Positions 2,215 to 33,755 are shown, numbered from the stretch's first letter. The stretch: DNA of 37,988 nt from a virus (IMGVR_UViG_2737471821_000001:1-37988); one strand, 5' to 3'. Notes: generated by a model not told the origin, from the sequence alone. Numbers and translations are program-made.

Positions 2215-3003
2215 ATGGCTTCAAACTGGATAAAGCTCGAGGTTATTACGCCGGATAAGCCGGAAATATTCAGGCTTGCTGAGATTCTGAATATTGATCC
2301 AGATGCCGCATTAGGGAAGGTTATTCGCTTCTGGGCATGGGCGGATCAACAAATGATAGACGGTAATGCAGATTGTAACGCTCGCGGCGTTACAAAAAGT
2401 GCAATAGATCGCATCACTTTTATGGCTGGTTTTGCTGATGCGTTAATTCAGGTTGGATGGCTGGTCGAAAATGACGTTGGGCTTTCTCTACCTAACTTTG
2501 AACGCCATAACGGAAAAAGCTCTAAAAAACGGGCGGTTACAAACGAGCGAGTTACAAAAATACGTGAACTGAAACGAAAAGGTAACGCTGCCGGCGTTAC
2601 ACAAACGGATCAAAAAGCGCTACCAGAGGAAGAGGAAGAGGAAGATCTAAATACTGATCTCCCCCTAAATCCCCCTCGCCAAAAACGAGCGTCTAAAAAA
2701 TTCGAGCCGGAGGCTATTGAGCTGCCCGATTGGTTGCCGGAAACACTCTGGCATGAGTGGGTCCGGTTCAGACAGGCATTGCGAAAACCGATTCGAACGG
2801 AGCAGGGCGCTAACGGGGCGATACGGGAACTGGAAAAATTCCGTCAGCAGGGGTTTACACCTGAGCAGGTGATTCGACACAGCATCGCCAATGAATACCA
2901 GGGCCTGTTCGCGCCGAAAGGTGTTCGGCCTGAGACGTTGCTCCGACAGGTTAACACCGTCTCGTTGCCGGACAGTGCGATCCCGCCAGGCTTCAGGGGG
3001 TAA
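2215..3003 (+). CDS. ydaU: phage replication initiation protein (YdaU-like)
   Basis: 262-aa ORF immediately upstream of the DnaC-like loader. Contains an acidic EEEEEED linker and three GTAACGC/GCGTTAC palindromes in or just upstream of the gene. Confidence 0.6.
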   Translation: MASNWIKLEVITPDKPEIFRLAEILNIDPDAALGKVIRFWAWADQQMIDGNADCNARGVTKSAIDRITFMAGFADALIQVGWLVENDVGLSLPNFERHNGKSSKKRAVTNERVTKIRELKRKGNAAGVTQTDQKALPEEEEEEDLNTDLPLNPPRQKRASKKFEPEAIELPDWLPETLWHEWVRFRQALRKPIRTEQGANGAIRELEKFRQQGFTPEQVIRHSIANEYQGLFAPKGVRPETLLRQVNTVSLPDSAIPPGFRG

Positions 3004-3009
3004 CAGACC

Positions 3010-3756
3010 ATGAAAAATATTGCGACAGGAGGCGTTCTGGAGCGTATCCGCAGACTGACCCCACCACATGTAACCGCCCCATTCAGAACGGTTGCGGAGT
3101 GGCGCGAGTGGCAACTTGCTGAAGGCCAGAAACGTAGCGAGGAGATCAACCGCCTGAATCGCCAGTTGCGGGTGGAAAAAATTCTGAATCGCTCAGGCAT
3201 CCAGCCGTTGCACCGTAAATGCTCGTTTGCGAATTACCAGGTGCAGAACGACGGCCAGCGATACGCGTTAAGCCAGGCGAAATCCATCGCCGATGAACTG
3301 ATGACCGGGTGTACAAATTTTGCGTTCAGCGGAAAACCTGGTACCGGGAAGAATCACTTAGCGGCAGCTATCGGGAATCGCCTGCTGAAAGACGGTCAGA
3401 CAGTGATTGTGGTTACCGTGGCTGATGTTATGAGCGCCCTGCACGCCAGCTATGACGACGGGCAGTCAGGCGAAAAATTTTTGCGGGAACTGTGCGAAGT
3501 GGATCTGCTGGTTCTTGATGAAATTGGCATTCAGCGCGAGACGAAAAACGAGCAGGTGGTACTGCACCAGATTATTGATCGACGGACAGCGTCGATGCGT
3601 AGCGTGGGAATGCTGACAAACCTGAACTATGAGGCCATGAAAACATTGCTCGGCGAGCGGATTATGGATCGCATGACCATGAACGGCGGGCGCTGGGTGA
3701 ATTTTAACTGGGAGAGCTGGCGCCCGAATGTTGGTCAGCCAGGTATTGAAAAGTAA
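3010..3756 (+). CDS. ydaV: DnaC/IstB-like AAA+ helicase loader (YdaV-like)
   Basis: Walker A motif [15 protein letters not shown] and Walker B LLVLDEIG. 248 aa. Confidence 0.85.
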
Positions 3757-10001: not shown

Positions 10002-10077
10002 GGCCCTTTAGCTCAGTGGTGAGAGCGAGCGACTCATAATCGCCAGGTCGCTGGTTCAAATCCAGCAAGGGCCACCA
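10002..10077 (+). tRNA. tRNA with CAU anticodon (Ile2/lysidine-type or Met; ileZ-like)
   Basis: Cloverleaf folded by hand: acceptor GGCCCTT/AAGGGCC, D-arm GCTC..GAGC, anticodon loop CTCATAA, T-arm GCTGG-TTCAAAT-CCAGC, encoded CCA. Confidence 0.8.
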
Positions 10078-10079
10078 TT

Positions 10080-10156
10080 CCGCCACTAGCTCATCGGGAT
10101 AGAGCATCAACCTTCTAAGTTGATTGTGCGAGGTTCGAGTCCTCGGTGGCGGACCA
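10080..10156 (+). tRNA. tRNA-Arg (UCU anticodon; argN/argO-like)
   Basis: Acceptor CCGCCAC/GTGGCGG, anticodon loop CTTCTAA, T-arm CGAGG-TTCGAGT-CCTCG, encoded CCA. Starts 3 nt after the previous tRNA. Confidence 0.7.
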
Positions 10157-11460: not shown

Positions 11461-11533
<73 letters not shown>

Positions 11534-13363: not shown

Positions 13364-13973
13364 TATTAACTTTCATCCGTTTAAAAACCGTGGAGCATTT
13401 GGTGGCCTTTTTAACGTCGAATCCCGTGGGCTGATGCAGGGGGATGCGCAGGATGATCCGGCAATTCGTCTGCAACTTTGCTCCGGACGACTGGACAGCA
13501 AAATCAGTGAACCGGTATGGGGTGGTGTCGGTGTTATCGAGTGCATCGCTCCCGCGAAAGACAGCGTTAACGGGGCGGTTATCAAGCAGGCCACGAATGA
13601 CGCCTGTAACGCCTTTACTGTCTTTAATCAGGCATTTCATGGCATTACCACGCCGGATAATCCGGTGCCGTTATATCTCGCGGGTGGCTTTGTTCACTAT
13701 TACCGCGTCGGTTCAGGTGCCCGCATTCCTCTCCCTGTCAGTGCAGAAGTTGTTGCGCTGGCTGATGGAAATAACACCGTTGCTGCCTGTGGTTTTGTGT
13801 GGGATCTGACGAAAAACATGATTGATGTTTATTCGGGATCACCCGGCACTAATCCGAAAGTGGATATTAAGCTGCTGATGGTTTCAGTTGACGGAAACCT
13901 GACGGTGAAAAAAGAGGATGGCGGTAACGTTGTCTGGGAAATCGGCAAACCGTGCGGCCTGTTTTTAATTTAA
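13356..13973 (+). CDS. putative virion head protein (decoration/accessory-like)
   Basis: 205-aa ORF overlapping the upstream stop, between the scaffold-like and capsid-like genes. Confidence 0.4.
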   Translation: MADINFHPFKNRGAFGGLFNVESRGLMQGDAQDDPAIRLQLCSGRLDSKISEPVWGGVGVIECIAPAKDSVNGAVIKQATNDACNAFTVFNQAFHGITTPDNPVPLYLAGGFVHYYRVGSGARIPLPVSAEVVALADGNNTVAACGFVWDLTKNMIDVYSGSPGTNPKVDIKLLMVSVDGNLTVKKEDGGNVVWEIGKPCGLFLI

Positions 13974-13987
13974 GGGGATATTAATTA

Positions 13988-15016
13988 ATGAGCGCATTTA
14001 CTCCTGCGACTACTATTGTGTCGCCGTCAATGGTGCTGCCGGAAATGATCGTGCAACAGAGCATGGCTTCCGGGGCGTTTGAAGTCCTGGCTGGTGGTGC
14101 TCCGGCAGTAAAAATCAGTTCCAGTGATTTGATGGTCTATCAGAAATATCTGCGCATGACCTCGCAGGCGCAGGTCAGCCAGTCTCTGCCGGGCCAGTTA
14201 CCGTCTTCCAGTATCTCTGGTGGCTATGACGGGATGATGACTTATCGAATTTCTTCCCGCTCGCAATACAGCTATCTCGATACTGATGCAGCAGATCGCT
14301 GGGGCTATTCTCTGATTGAAGGCCTGCGCTTGGCTAACCGCCAGGGACACGCTCAAATGTTGCGTAATATGCTGCTGTACGGTGTTGAAGCGAAGAATAA
14401 CGAAGGGATCACCAACTCCCCGAATGCAGTGACGCTGAATCTGGGCAACGACAGCAAAGGTAACGATTCGTACACCACCTGGGATTCCGGCGAGATGGCT
14501 AAATTTATGCTTGGCCTGATTGCTGACCAGAAAACCCGCATGTTGCTGCTGGGGCAGCCATTAACGACTGTTATTCTGAGTCCACAGCGATTCATGAAGG
14601 CGCTGGAGTGGACAGGAATTGTTGAGCTGACCAGTTATCAGCGTCCTGGTGGTGGTACCGGAACGGTGGGAACGATGGTTAAAGATGTCGCCGATAAGGC
14701 GACAGGCGACGACATCATTTTCTGCCAGGACGACACGCTGATCGGTAAAGGCGCTGGTGGTAATGACCTGATCATCGTTACGAACCCGACGATTGAGGTT
14801 CCGGAAGCGCGTCATACCATTAACACCAATATTTTCTCCACGCTGGTTCCTAACCAGCAGGCCGTCAACGTGATGTTCTGTGATATGGCAGCGCCGACGG
14901 AAATACCATCCCCTATGCCGGATGGTGGCCTGACCACGTTGTATACCATGCGCGCGACGCCGGGCTGGAACTTCCGCCCTGAGGGGATCACCCTGTTGTC
15001 TGCCAAATACGCATAA
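13988..15016 (+). CDS. putative major capsid protein
   Basis: 342-aa ORF with AAGGGGA RBS, followed by a strong intrinsic terminator. Assignment by size and position after the scaffold-like gene; no family match could be made. Confidence 0.4.
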   Translation: MSAFTPATTIVSPSMVLPEMIVQQSMASGAFEVLAGGAPAVKISSSDLMVYQKYLRMTSQAQVSQSLPGQLPSSSISGGYDGMMTYRISSRSQYSYLDTDAADRWGYSLIEGLRLANRQGHAQMLRNMLLYGVEAKNNEGITNSPNAVTLNLGNDSKGNDSYTTWDSGEMAKFMLGLIADQKTRMLLLGQPLTTVILSPQRFMKALEWTGIVELTSYQRPGGGTGTVGTMVKDVADKATGDDIIFCQDDTLIGKGAGGNDLIIVTNPTIEVPEARHTINTNIFSTLVPNQQAVNVMFCDMAAPTEIPSPMPDGGLTTLYTMRATPGWNFRPEGITLLSAKYA

Positions 15017-30468: not shown

Positions 30469-30491
30469 TTTAATTTATCGCGAGAAAAACT

Positions 30492-31225
30492 ATGTCTGTA
30501 GTGATATCAGGTGCACTGATTGATGGCGCAGGCATCCCCATGTACGGATGCCACATAACTCTGAAATCCCGGGTAAACACCTCAGAGGTGTGATGCGCAC
30601 AGTTGCCGATGTGGTGACAGGAAACTGTGGTGCAGGCGCAGCAGAGCGCGAAACAGCACAGGGACGAGGCGCAATGGATAGTTGATGATCTGAAGGGAAG
30701 CAATGCTTCCACGACAAAAAAGGTCTGGCGCAACTCTGTAGTGATACAGACAACGACAGCGAAGAACTGGCAGCCACGCCAAAGGCTGTCAAAACCGTCA
30801 CGGACGAGACGAAAACAAAAGCGCCACTGGACAGCCCTGCATTCACCGTCACGTCAGAACTTATCGCCGTGGGAAAGGATGCCAGAAAGCGGGAAATCGA
30901 GGTGTGGAGCACAGAACAGGAAGCGCAGCCGTTCACGTTCGAATGGAACGGTCGCACCTGGAATGCTGGCCCCGACTCAATGGCTCGTCTTTATCCGGCA
31001 GTAATGGCATCAAAGTCTGACACAGCGCGAAAAACCATGGTATGGGGCGATGCGGAAAACCAGCAGGTGAAGCTGTCAATGCCGGAACCGGAAGAACTGG
31101 CAGCAGCAATGGCGCAGGCTGTTGTTGAACGCAATGACGAGATTTATCGCCGTCAGCGAGAGAAGAAAGAAGCGTTAGACACTCTGGAGGATTTAGATGC
31201 GATACGAGCATTTAATGTTGAGTAA
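30492..31225 (+). pseudogene. degenerate lambdoid side-tail-fibre (Stf)-like gene remnant, frameshifted
   Basis: ORF opens with MSVVISGALIDGAGIPMYGCHITLKSRVNTSEV then a stop at 30591, resembling the lambda Stf N-terminus. Another frame carries ATPKAVKTVTDETKTKAPLDSPAFT, resembling an internal Stf motif. Reading shifts between three frames. Confidence 0.5.
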
Positions 31226-31396
31226 CGAATAGGTCGCAGTGAGTTGTTCTGGTATCTGAAGAATGAGGCTCCGGTTGCTGGCTGCAGTCGGAGGTTTATG
31301 ATGTGTACTCTCACATTGTTGAAGAAATCAATTGCGCAATTGGAGAGCAGGAACGTAAGAAAACAAGAGAAAGTCTACAATCGCTTGTAGGGTGTC

Positions 31397-31439
31397 ACTT
31401 CTTGATTTTTTCATAAATTTTATGATAAAATCAAGAAGT
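31397..31439. promoter_or_regulatory. 43-bp near-perfect palindrome (candidate operator/promoter) upstream of the two-gene cargo operon
   Basis: ACTTCTTGATTTTTTCATAAA-T-TTTATGATAAAATCAAGAAGT, one mismatched pair; contains TTGATT and TATGAT hexamers. Confidence 0.5.
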
Positions 31440-31461
31440 AAAAGTGATGGGAGAAACTTTC

Positions 31462-32133
31462 ATGAATATGCCTCATTGTGTTCTGCATACAGGAATTGAT
31501 TCGGATTTTGTACTTAGTAAACTGGGCTTTACAGAAAATGATATTCGCGATGCGTTAATGTCTGCTTTATACGAGCGACGCAAATCCAGTAAGCTCCACC
31601 CTAAAGTGGATGCTGGATTCCGCTTTTGGAGTGAGATGGTTGCCGCGCTTCGCCGTATTCTGATTGGTAAGGGTAACGGCTGGTCTTCTGAAGTAGTCAA
31701 TCGCATGGAAATGGTCGTTAATTCAAGCAAAGGGGTTAATCTGATTATTACCTCAGGTGACGGACATACCGGGCGTCCTGATGGATTGCCTAAAACCAAA
31801 AATGCAAAGGGAGAGGCAACTCGCTCGATTGTTCACAACAATCCGGGTACATTCGATATGTTCCAAGCAGATACCTTACATTCAGGCAAAGCTGAGATCA
31901 CGCCGATAGATAGCACCCGAACTTATATCGTTCTGTATTATTATGATGCGGCAAATAAAGAAATTCGCTGTGAGGTGTCGTATCCGGTAGGGATGGTGAA
32001 TCAGGACGGATTTGCCAGAGTAAGCGCGTGGAGTGAGCGAATTATTTTAGCTCCTCTGCAATTTGAAGGTGCGGATATTTTCCCTGAACAGGATTTTGAT
32101 GATGACATATCAATTTCAGTTGAAAGCAAATGA
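31462..32133 (+). CDS. hypothetical protein, upstream partner of the HTH-ImmA gene (candidate effector/toxin)
   Basis: ATG at 31462 with GGGAGA RBS (the track ORF begins at a GTG at 31444). 223 aa, no family recognised. Stop overlaps the next start (ATGA). Confidence 0.5.
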   Translation: MNMPHCVLHTGIDSDFVLSKLGFTENDIRDALMSALYERRKSSKLHPKVDAGFRFWSEMVAALRRILIGKGNGWSSEVVNRMEMVVNSSKGVNLIITSGDGHTGRPDGLPKTKNAKGEATRSIVHNNPGTFDMFQADTLHSGKAEITPIDSTRTYIVLYYYDAANKEIRCEVSYPVGMVNQDGFARVSAWSERIILAPLQFEGADIFPEQDFDDDISISVESK

Positions 32134-33236
32134 GTAACACTGTTGATGATGTCAAACGTCTTTTTAATCCGTCTCGACTAAAGCTAGCGCGGATCAGACG
32201 CAAACTGACCTTGGCAGAACTGGCGAGGCGAACCGGGTTATCTAGTCGTATCGTAATTGAATACGAAAAAGATTATTGTCTTTATGCACCCACGGCAGAG
32301 ACGGTACGCGCATACGCTAGTGCTTTAAATTATCCAGAGGCTTTTTTCTTTGGCGATGATGTTGAAACAATTGATCCATTGACTGTTTCATTTCGTTCAT
32401 TACGCACAACAAAAGCTGCTGACCAGCATGCGGCAATTGGTGCAGGTGCTTTAGGGGTTATGCTTAGCGATTATTTTAATGCTCGCTTTACTCTTCCTTC
32501 GCCTCAATTGCCGAATCTCCGTGGAAGTGAGCCTGAGGTCGCTGCCCAAGCGATACGCGAGGCTTGGGGGATTGGTAAGAAGAGTATCACCAATGTTGTT
32601 CATCTACTTGAGAAATTTGGAGTTAAGGTGTTCTGGCTTTCAGAGGAAACAGCGAGTATTGATGCTTTTTCGTTCTGGAAAGATGATGTCCCTTATATCT
32701 TTCTTAACACACGCAAGTCAGGTGAACGCAGCCGTTTTGATGCCGCACATGAATTGGCTCACCTAGTACTTCATCGTCAAGGGGAAGTCAAAGGGCAGGA
32801 TGCTGAGCGTGAAGCGGATGCTTTTGCTTCTGCATTTCTAATGCCTCAGGAAAACGTGATGGCCGTTAAGATGGTGGTCCCGACGTTTGATAAAATTGTG
32901 CAATTGAAATCACTCTGGAAAGTTTCGGCTATGGCCCTGATTGTCAGAATGCGCAATCTAAATATGCTGACGGAATGGCAGTATAATAGTTTGATACGTG
33001 ATGCGACGGCAAAGGGGTATCGAACCGGCGAGCCGGGGGGAATTGAGCGCGAAAGATCACTCGTTATAGAAAAAATGATGACTGCTCTGGCTGGAGACGG
33101 CATTTATCTGGCTCAGTTGAGTGATGAGCTTAACGTACCTCTCGATGAATTGAGTAGTTTGCTTTATGGAGTTGCGGCAATTAGTGGCGGAAATAGCAAA
33201 AGAACACCATCAAGGGCTTCGCTCCGACTAGTATGA
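32130..33236 (+). CDS. fusion of HTH-XRE DNA-binding domain and ImmA/IrrE-type zinc metallopeptidase (COG2856-like)
   Basis: N-terminal HTH (LKLARIRRKLTLAELARRTGLSSRIVIEYE) and central HEXXH motif (AAHELAHLVLH). Confidence 0.7.
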   Translation: MSNTVDDVKRLFNPSRLKLARIRRKLTLAELARRTGLSSRIVIEYEKDYCLYAPTAETVRAYASALNYPEAFFFGDDVETIDPLTVSFRSLRTTKAADQHAAIGAGALGVMLSDYFNARFTLPSPQLPNLRGSEPEVAAQAIREAWGIGKKSITNVVHLLEKFGVKVFWLSEETASIDAFSFWKDDVPYIFLNTRKSGERSRFDAAHELAHLVLHRQGEVKGQDAEREADAFASAFLMPQENVMAVKMVVPTFDKIVQLKSLWKVSAMALIVRMRNLNMLTEWQYNSLIRDATAKGYRTGEPGGIERERSLVIEKMMTALAGDGIYLAQLSDELNVPLDELSSLLYGVAAISGGNSKRTPSRASLRLV

Positions 33237-33411
33237 CCCGTAAATGCTCACATCTGGAGTCGTAGTGAACGTCTTTTGGGCCTGAAAAGTAAATCCCCAG
33301 TTGTTGCTGACAACTGGGGATTTTTATAACAGCATATAAATCGTAAAGGATATTGTCATATGCCTTATTCAAGAACGTGCTGAGGTTGAGAAGTTTTGGA
33401 ATTTTTTCGGT

Positions 33412-33457
33412 GGCAAAAATGGGGCAAAACGCTGCAAAAGGGGCAAAAATGGGGCAA
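33412..33457. repeat. two direct copies of GGCAAAAATGGGGCAA near the prophage/core junction
   Basis: Copies at 33412..33427 and 33442..33457, read directly from the sequence. Confidence 0.5.
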
Positions 33458-33755
33458 CAAAAGAGTGGATTATCGTAGCTTATTGTTGTTGCTGATAACA
33501 CTTAACGCATTGAAAAATAAATAAAACTCTTACACCTCAGATGGTTGTGATTTTTGCCCTTACTTGTTCAGGTTGTATTGTTCTTTCTTACTAATTTCTT
33601 GATTTTGCGACATTTAAAAGCGACTCAATTCGTTATATGGCATCAGAAGAGTATGCGTCATGCCGGAACGCCCAGCATAAGAAATCTGATATAAAAAACT
33701 GTGGCGTGTATGGTACGGATTAGAGGGGAAAATGTCAGCACATTTGCGAAATGAA

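Follow-up and report, generated by a model that had tools for sequence, protein, structure and literature searches.

A Probable RosmerTA Phage-Defense Module Just Inside attR of a Rac-Type Escherichia coli Prophage

The window, a 37,988-nt stretch of viral DNA (IMGVR_UViG_2737471821_000001:1-37988), carries two co-oriented ORFs on the plus strand, gene 1 (rmrT) followed by gene 2 (rmrA). We estimate a probability of about 0.85 that the pair is a RosmerTA (RmrT/RmrA) phage-defense module, a self-contained cassette that forms cargo of a Rac-type E. coli prophage and lies just within its attR. RosmerTA is here an already known kind of system in a typical location, and because gene 1 belongs to a recognized family, RmrT, the module is not a new one.

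Identity of the Two Genes

Both genes match RosmerTA models of PADLOC. The 223-aa product of rmrT (31462–32133, +), the predicted toxin/effector, matches the RmrT model PDLC03935 over positions 10–206 of 207 (E = 1.4e-59) and a second RmrT model, PDLC03932, at 5e-11. The 368-aa product of rmrA (32130–33236, +), the predicted antitoxin/regulator, matches the RmrA model PDLC03949 over positions 2–362 of 363 (E = 1e-142). We also compared the pair to one experimentally verified RosmerTA, that of E. coli OLC-716, whose sequences Millman et al. (10.1101/2022.05.11.491447) give in their supplement. Identity to the verified RmrT is 29% for gene 1, over 211 residues (E = 4e-19), and gene 2 aligns along its whole length with the verified RmrA at 44% identity (E = 1e-106). 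At the level of sequence, the locus has an RmrA, an adjacent RmrT, a co-oriented operon, and an intact metallopeptidase site, which are the features expected of a RosmerTA. By analogy with homologs, RmrT is predicted to be toxic and RmrA to neutralize it, and the OLC-716 and Kita systems suggest that this ortholog may protect against phages.

The sequence-only reading had proposed a toxin–antitoxin-like or defense pair, with the HTH–peptidase protein as regulator or antitoxin and the upstream protein as effector, and the full-length RmrT and RmrA matches and the homology to the OLC-716 pair bear this out. Its view that the upstream 223-aa protein lacks a recognizable family was mistaken, because the protein is an RmrT and an exhaustive profile search at E ≤ 1e-3 places it in a family of at least 1,485 clusters at 50% identity, nearly all with members of 210–235 aa. 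All 142 sampled members of the family match the same two PADLOC RmrT models. Neither gene 1 nor any member of a diverse set of 142 relatives has a Pfam family, and NCBIfam and PHROGs gave no match for gene 1.

RmrA joins an XRE-type HTH to an ImmA/IrrE-type peptidase, a fusion that had been read from the sequence and that Pfam confirms with two domains above gathering score. HTH_3 spans residues 17–72 (nt 32178–32345) and Peptidase_M78 spans residues 161–274 (nt 32610–32951), followed by a C-terminal region of residues 275–368. The HEXXH motif lies at residues 207–211 (nt 32748–32762), inside AAHELAHLVLH, and E228, in an EADxFA motif, is likely the third zinc ligand. H207, E208, H211, and E228 are invariant across nine sequences, the verified RmrA included.

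Operon Structure and Control Region

Gene 1 ends at 32133 and has three candidate starts, GTG 31444, ATG 31447, and ATG 31462. RefSeq uses ATG 31447, which gives 228 aa; the start kept among orthologs from eight other species is ATG 31462, which gives the 223-aa version. A Shine-Dalgarno sequence read from the DNA, GGGAGA (31449–31454, +), is 7 nt 5' of this ATG, and closer orthologs (L002–L007) have a GGAG equivalent at the same spacing. The start of rmrA overlaps the stop of rmrT in an ATGA, and the overlap is kept at all orthologous loci examined. The ORFs are as first described, two translationally coupled genes. One promoter-like site 5' and one terminator 3' of the pair are consistent with a single operon. 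The intrinsic terminator (33291–33325, +) is a 15-bp hairpin followed by UUUUU, with a predicted fold of −22.2 kcal/mol (z = −6.3) that none of 200 shuffled sequences equaled. A terminator-like stem-loop with a weak T-tail, picked up by consensus scan only, is located between the tail-fiber-related genes and the operon (31269–31293, +) and may shield the operon from late transcription of the phage. The operon had also been called AT-rich, which is true to a mild degree and not a marked one, given a GC content of 44.6% compared to 47.3% for the prophage part of the window and 46.1% for the tail-fiber genes.

The long palindrome that had been noticed 5' of the operon is real and occupies 31397–31439, immediately before position 31440, from which the operon region had been delimited. 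Its two 21-nt arms (31397–31417 and 31419–31439) are 1 nt apart and 95% complementary, and its outer half-sites are CACTTCTTGATTT and AAATCATGAAGTG. In ten other loci of the close subfamily (L002–L009, L012, and L013) the palindrome recurs between −65 and −70 relative to the ATG, in flanking DNA that is unrelated among these loci. A palindrome with 22-nt arms and TTCTTG in the left arm also precedes both the verified OLC-716-type system and L016, a distant locus, and in each case 0 of 200 shuffles reach the observed score. At two other loci, L017 and L018, the upstream palindrome is weak or absent.

A sigma-70-like promoter, recognized by consensus match only, is located wholly within the palindrome (31402–31431, +). 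It has a −35 of TTGATT, an 18-nt spacer, and an extended −10 of TG-n-TAAAAT, and scores 9 of 12 relative to the consensus, with the TG present. The palindrome is presumed to be an operator bound by a dimer of the RmrA HTH. Because it covers both promoter hexamers, autorepression of the operon by the RmrA HTH would be the natural expectation.

Prophage Setting

Of 5,426 complete E. coli genomes, eight carry the 2-kb region of the operon with an identity of at least 99.5%, and in each it is chromosomal. In strain VG48B2, the surrounding element is a Rac-type prophage with the order ttcA–intR–xisR–ralR–recT–recE, followed later by tail genes, a tail-fiber assembly gene, a DUF4376 gene, gene 1, and gene 2, and with the host genes uspF, ompN, and nifJ beyond gene 2. 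The attR site is a 43-nt ttcA-derived stretch (33564–33606) found by blastn against the ttcA/intR junction of the VG48B2 prophage. Its core is TTGTTCAGGTTGTAT (33564–33578), and the site marks the right boundary of the Rac-type prophage, with uspF and ompN beyond it. The operon is therefore the last cargo within the prophage, ∼330 bp from the right boundary, and the match of the attR core to the VG48B2 junction agrees with the right-end position that the sequence-only reading had given it. Between rmrA and attR, and not part of the module, are two AAATGGGGCAA(A) repeats (33417–33457; copies at 33417–33428 and 33447–33457). The same 11–12-mer adjoins intR at attL in VG48B2, and because the motif is thus present at the other prophage end as well, the repeats are probably integrase arm-type sites of attR. 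The operon DNA had no match in the GenBank phage collection, including at low stringency.

Several other features of the prophage were observed. The segment between the tail-fiber assembly gene and rmrT (30470–31225) holds a short remnant annotated as a tail-fiber N-terminal domain and a DUF4376 protein (30869–31225), and has an unusually high GC content (54%) and an AT skew of +0.32. It looks like a decayed second tail-fiber cassette, which implies that the right end of the prophage has been rearranged. Farther upstream, amid a block of baseplate genes, a 391-aa protein (25318–26493, +; upstream ORF at 24836–25183) stands alone, and its sole recognizable domain is HSDR_N, the N-terminal nuclease domain of type I restriction R subunits (E = 5.6e-14). 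RefSeq labels it "type I restriction endonuclease" and PADLOC gives no match. The gene looks like a second cargo gene, in the tail module, for defense or counter-defense. Three tRNA genes on the plus strand (10002–10077, 10080–10156, and 11461–11533) have a CAT anticodon, Arg-TCT, and Gly-TCC, respectively. The first was called Met by ARAGORN and, since RefSeq annotates the same gene as tRNA-Ile, it is probably of the lysidine-modified Ile2 type. Directly after the terminase genes, where a portal gene is expected, RefSeq annotates a truncated "anti-CBASS protein Acb1 family protein" pseudogene (2524–3708 of locus L001, corresponding to about 13823–15007 of the window). The window ORF at 13988–15016 has no Pfam or PADLOC match.

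Relatives and Their Genomic Context

We examined 16 relatives, comprising eight species-representative genomes, one locus with a protein that sources assign to Rouxiella badensis, three Serratia loci, and four distant members (25–34% identity; one in a Chloroflexota MAG). Across a range of 87% to 25% identity, a gene encoding HTH and M78 domains is directly 3' of the rmrT homolog in every one, and every one of the loci is in a mobile element or a defense island. In L012 the cassette is flanked by a Gabija-like OLD-TOPRIM/UvrD pair on one side and a type I R-M system on the other; it is in the nin region of lambdoid prophages in L013–L015, beside a serine recombinase and a terminase gene in L016, and among conjugation genes in L017. 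Integrases are also among its neighbors. The recurrence of homologous pairs in mobile or defense settings, raised as a possibility by the sequence-only reading, is therefore seen throughout, prophages and defense islands among them, and a gene 1 homolog in a core genome context without its partner was found in none of the 16 relatives.

The close RmrT subfamily is small and confined to Enterobacterales, with members of at least 90% identity on hundreds of contigs of E. coli and Salmonella. The partial E. coli matches H9–H12 were set aside as intact systems because they hold only a 96-aa RmrA remnant. In E. coli strain 1105 (L010, 6016–6306), this RmrA-like peptidase remnant has 86% DNA identity to part of rmrA and is located in a defense island of a CP4-57-like element, adjoining a HamA C-terminal-domain protein, a ComF-family protein, and an AAA ATPase. 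Remnants of the L010 type are evidence of decay of Rosmer cassettes in place. In two prophages of Serratia marcescens (L013 and L015, 8750–9781), RmrA is called as 343 aa with the peptidase domain only and a 72-nt gap after rmrT; the third Serratia locus has the usual 368-aa RmrA and keeps the overlap. The shorter calls may reflect a lesion of the N-terminal HTH or a difference in gene calling.

Predicted Structure and Conserved Residues of RmrT

An AF2 model of RmrT (pLDDT 88.7) has N-terminal helices, a sheet of six strands, and a C-terminal tail that is disordered and acidic, is conserved across the family, and ends in two basic residues. Searches of PDB sequences with shallow and deep RmrT profiles, and with RmrA, gave no match; the sole marginal match, to 2c1l/BfiI (E = 0.14), was judged not meaningful. 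Foldseek of the RmrT model against PDB likewise gave no significant match. Polar residues conserved across the family are R64, D/N100, K/R113, K116, N127, D162, E167, R169, E171 (100%), S173, and R193 (100%). In the model, E167, R169, E171, and S173 lie on one strand and, together with D162, R193, K116, and R64, form an invariant polar patch that sits away from canonical nuclease positions.

RmrT may weakly resemble the restriction-endonuclease fold, with its alpha-beta-beta-beta-alpha-beta core, and "nuclease-like" is a lead rather than an assignment for RmrT. The absence of a significant Foldseek match in PDB and the unconserved catalytic positions argue against the nuclease-like reading. 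We rejected a PD-(D/E)xK nuclease as a firm assignment because the canonical catalytic positions, an acidic residue opening core strand 2 and a (D/E)xK motif in core strand 3, are not conserved among 147 family members, in which position 83 is Glu in ∼35% and the strand at 92–98 is hydrophobic and ends in S-G-(D/N). A comparison by hhalign of the RmrT profile to the window's own HSDR_N protein returned nothing. A membrane target is unlikely because the model is a compact globular arrangement of helices and sheet and no long hydrophobic stretch is apparent by eye. The leading guess is that RmrT has a target related to nucleic acids or replication. More speculatively, RmrT could be a strongly diverged restriction-endonuclease-like fold that lacks the canonical PD-(D/E)xK site and has a new catalytic or binding surface on one face of strand 5 (E167-x-R169-x-E171-x-S173, D162, R193, and K116), acting on DNA or the replication machinery, with the acidic tail as a possible element of control by the RmrA peptidase or by ClpXP. 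We hold this proposal tentatively and consider it more doubtful than probable.

Proposed Mode of Action and Closest Known Systems

The conserved palindrome suggests how the module may be controlled. The XRE-type HTH of RmrA, presumably as a dimer, would bind the 43-bp palindrome spanning the −35 and −10 and would thereby keep expression of the bicistronic operon, with its two translationally coupled genes, low and autoregulated. RmrA would neutralize RmrT, as it does in homologous systems, by binding it, by cleaving it with the M78 peptidase, or by handing it to ClpXP. Based on the family, phage infection is predicted to break this control such that free RmrT stops the cell and the infection is aborted.

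Several parts of this scheme have precedents. RosmerTA protects E. coli from phages and a delta-rmrA version is not transformable (10.1101/2022.05.11.491447). In three Pectobacteriaceae strains that carry the system rmrA is essential, and clpX is essential only in those strains. Gordonia phage Kita carries a RosmerTA that defends against some BASEL phages and has a membrane-depolarizing toxin (PMC10440598). RipA, a pneumococcal toxin placed among the Rosmer toxins, targets the DnaN clamp and requires ClpX for its control, and in E. coli E101 a prophage toxin–antitoxin pair renders clpP essential, with suppressors that had lost the prophage. The toxins of these systems are unlike each other, and they therefore do not reveal what the present RmrT does.

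The OLC-716 RosmerTA (Millman et al. 2022; RmrT WP_000286846.1 and RmrA WP_000483388.1) is likewise a toxin-first operon of two genes on a mobile element. Its RmrA has the same architecture of HTH, M78, and C-terminal region, and a TTCTTG-containing palindrome likewise covers its promoter region. It is nonetheless of a different subfamily, its host is a P4-like satellite rather than the end of a Rac-type prophage, and its genes are 9 nt apart rather than overlapping in an ATGA. OLC-716-type systems are about as rare as the present subfamily, being in 10 of 5,426 complete E. coli genomes. In E. coli 2011C-4251 (L019, 4904–6745) such a system is in a P4-like satellite, with a gene of the DNA primase family and an Icd-like gene nearby.

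In Streptococcus pneumoniae, the antitoxin of RipA/RipB (Spr1630/Spr1629) is also a fusion of an XRE HTH and an ImmA-like peptidase, and its authors class the system as Rosmer. The present RmrA matches NCBIfam NF052239 (spr1629) over its full length with 126.5 bits, far below the equivalog cut-off of 335, and by this measure is related to the spr1629 family and is not an equivalog. Targeting of the DnaN clamp and the need for ClpX are features of RipA, not established for the present RmrT family. No homology between RmrT and RipA was established, and a database search with a deep alignment returned 34 proteins, none from Streptococcus. The Kita RosmerTA (RmrT-D5/RmrA-D25; Ernits et al. 2023) is, like the present one, phage-borne with an M78-protease antitoxin, and its defense is of narrow spectrum (PMC10440598). 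Its toxin has a membrane-localized C-terminus and depolarizes the membrane, whereas the present RmrT is modeled as compact and globular with an acidic tail. In E101_02645/E101_02644 of E. coli E101 (Rousset et al.), a prophage-borne toxin precedes its antidote as it does here, and a later paper cites the pair as an RmrT system. Compared by accession rather than sequence, it differs from both the present pair and the verified OLC-716 pair.

More distant comparisons are to systems that use the same two domains. In ImmR/ImmA of ICEBs1, IrrE/DdrO of Deinococcus, and CapH/CapP of CBASS, an XRE HTH repressor is coupled to a stress-responsive M78 zinc peptidase. In these, repressor and protease are encoded separately, and the outcome is relief of transcriptional repression. 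In contrast, the present HTH and M78 domains are fused and paired with a toxin.

Alternative Explanations

An architecture like that of a toxin–antitoxin pair, with a coupled and putatively autoregulated operon, would also suit an addiction or stabilization module that retains the prophage or the DNA adjacent to attR, with phage defense as an incidental effect. The operon is close enough to attR to be lost upon excision, and the E101 prophage toxin with its downstream partner, described above, shows the corresponding dependence on clpP and its relief by prophage loss. However, the same cassette is in non-prophage defense islands between Gabija-like and type I R-M genes, and homologous systems protect directly against phages. 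We regard this explanation as unlikely, and note that both roles are compatible. Decay of the operon into a nonfunctional remnant would fit the tail-fiber remnants in the adjoining DNA and the four other E. coli genomes that retain only the 96-aa RmrA fragment, but is scarcely credible for a locus in which both ORFs are full length relative to the HMMs, nothing is missing from the catalytic residues, the overlap, the putative operator, or the terminator, and identity is at least 99.5% in eight complete genomes.

It is also very improbable, though less so than decay, that gene 2 is a prophage switch like ImmR/ImmA or CapH/CapP, governing induction or late genes, and that the product of gene 1 is no toxin but an accessory phage protein under regulation. 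ImmA/ImmR and CapP/CapH share their M78 peptidase and XRE HTH domains with RmrA, and PADLOC reports partial matches to capP (1.3e-19) and capH (1e-5), but the full-length match to RmrA (1e-142) is far stronger. The two domains are fused in a single 368-aa polypeptide, so the locus does not have the separate proteins of an ImmR/ImmA- or CapH/CapP-type pair, and the neighboring gene encodes RmrT rather than an HTH repressor. The prophage also has its own XRE-type repressor candidate (887–1351), and the cassette is independent of phage type, being found in conjugative and integrative elements as well. We retain the RosmerTA defense module as the preferred reading of the pair.

Significance

RosmerTA has been cataloged since 2022 and standard defense-finder models detect the present locus, which adds little as a system. 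Its value is as a clean and compact pair of defense cargo genes beside attR of a Rac-type prophage, with a promoter-overlapping putative operator that the close subfamily conserves, as do some, not all, of the distant Rosmer loci examined. The activity of RmrT and the role of the peptidase are a question for the family rather than for this locus. RmrT represents the commonest "unknown" kind of Rosmer toxin, a soluble protein whose structure is predicted with confidence, that has no solved relative, and whose invariant residues are well defined, and these residues are targets for a first biochemical study of the toxin family.
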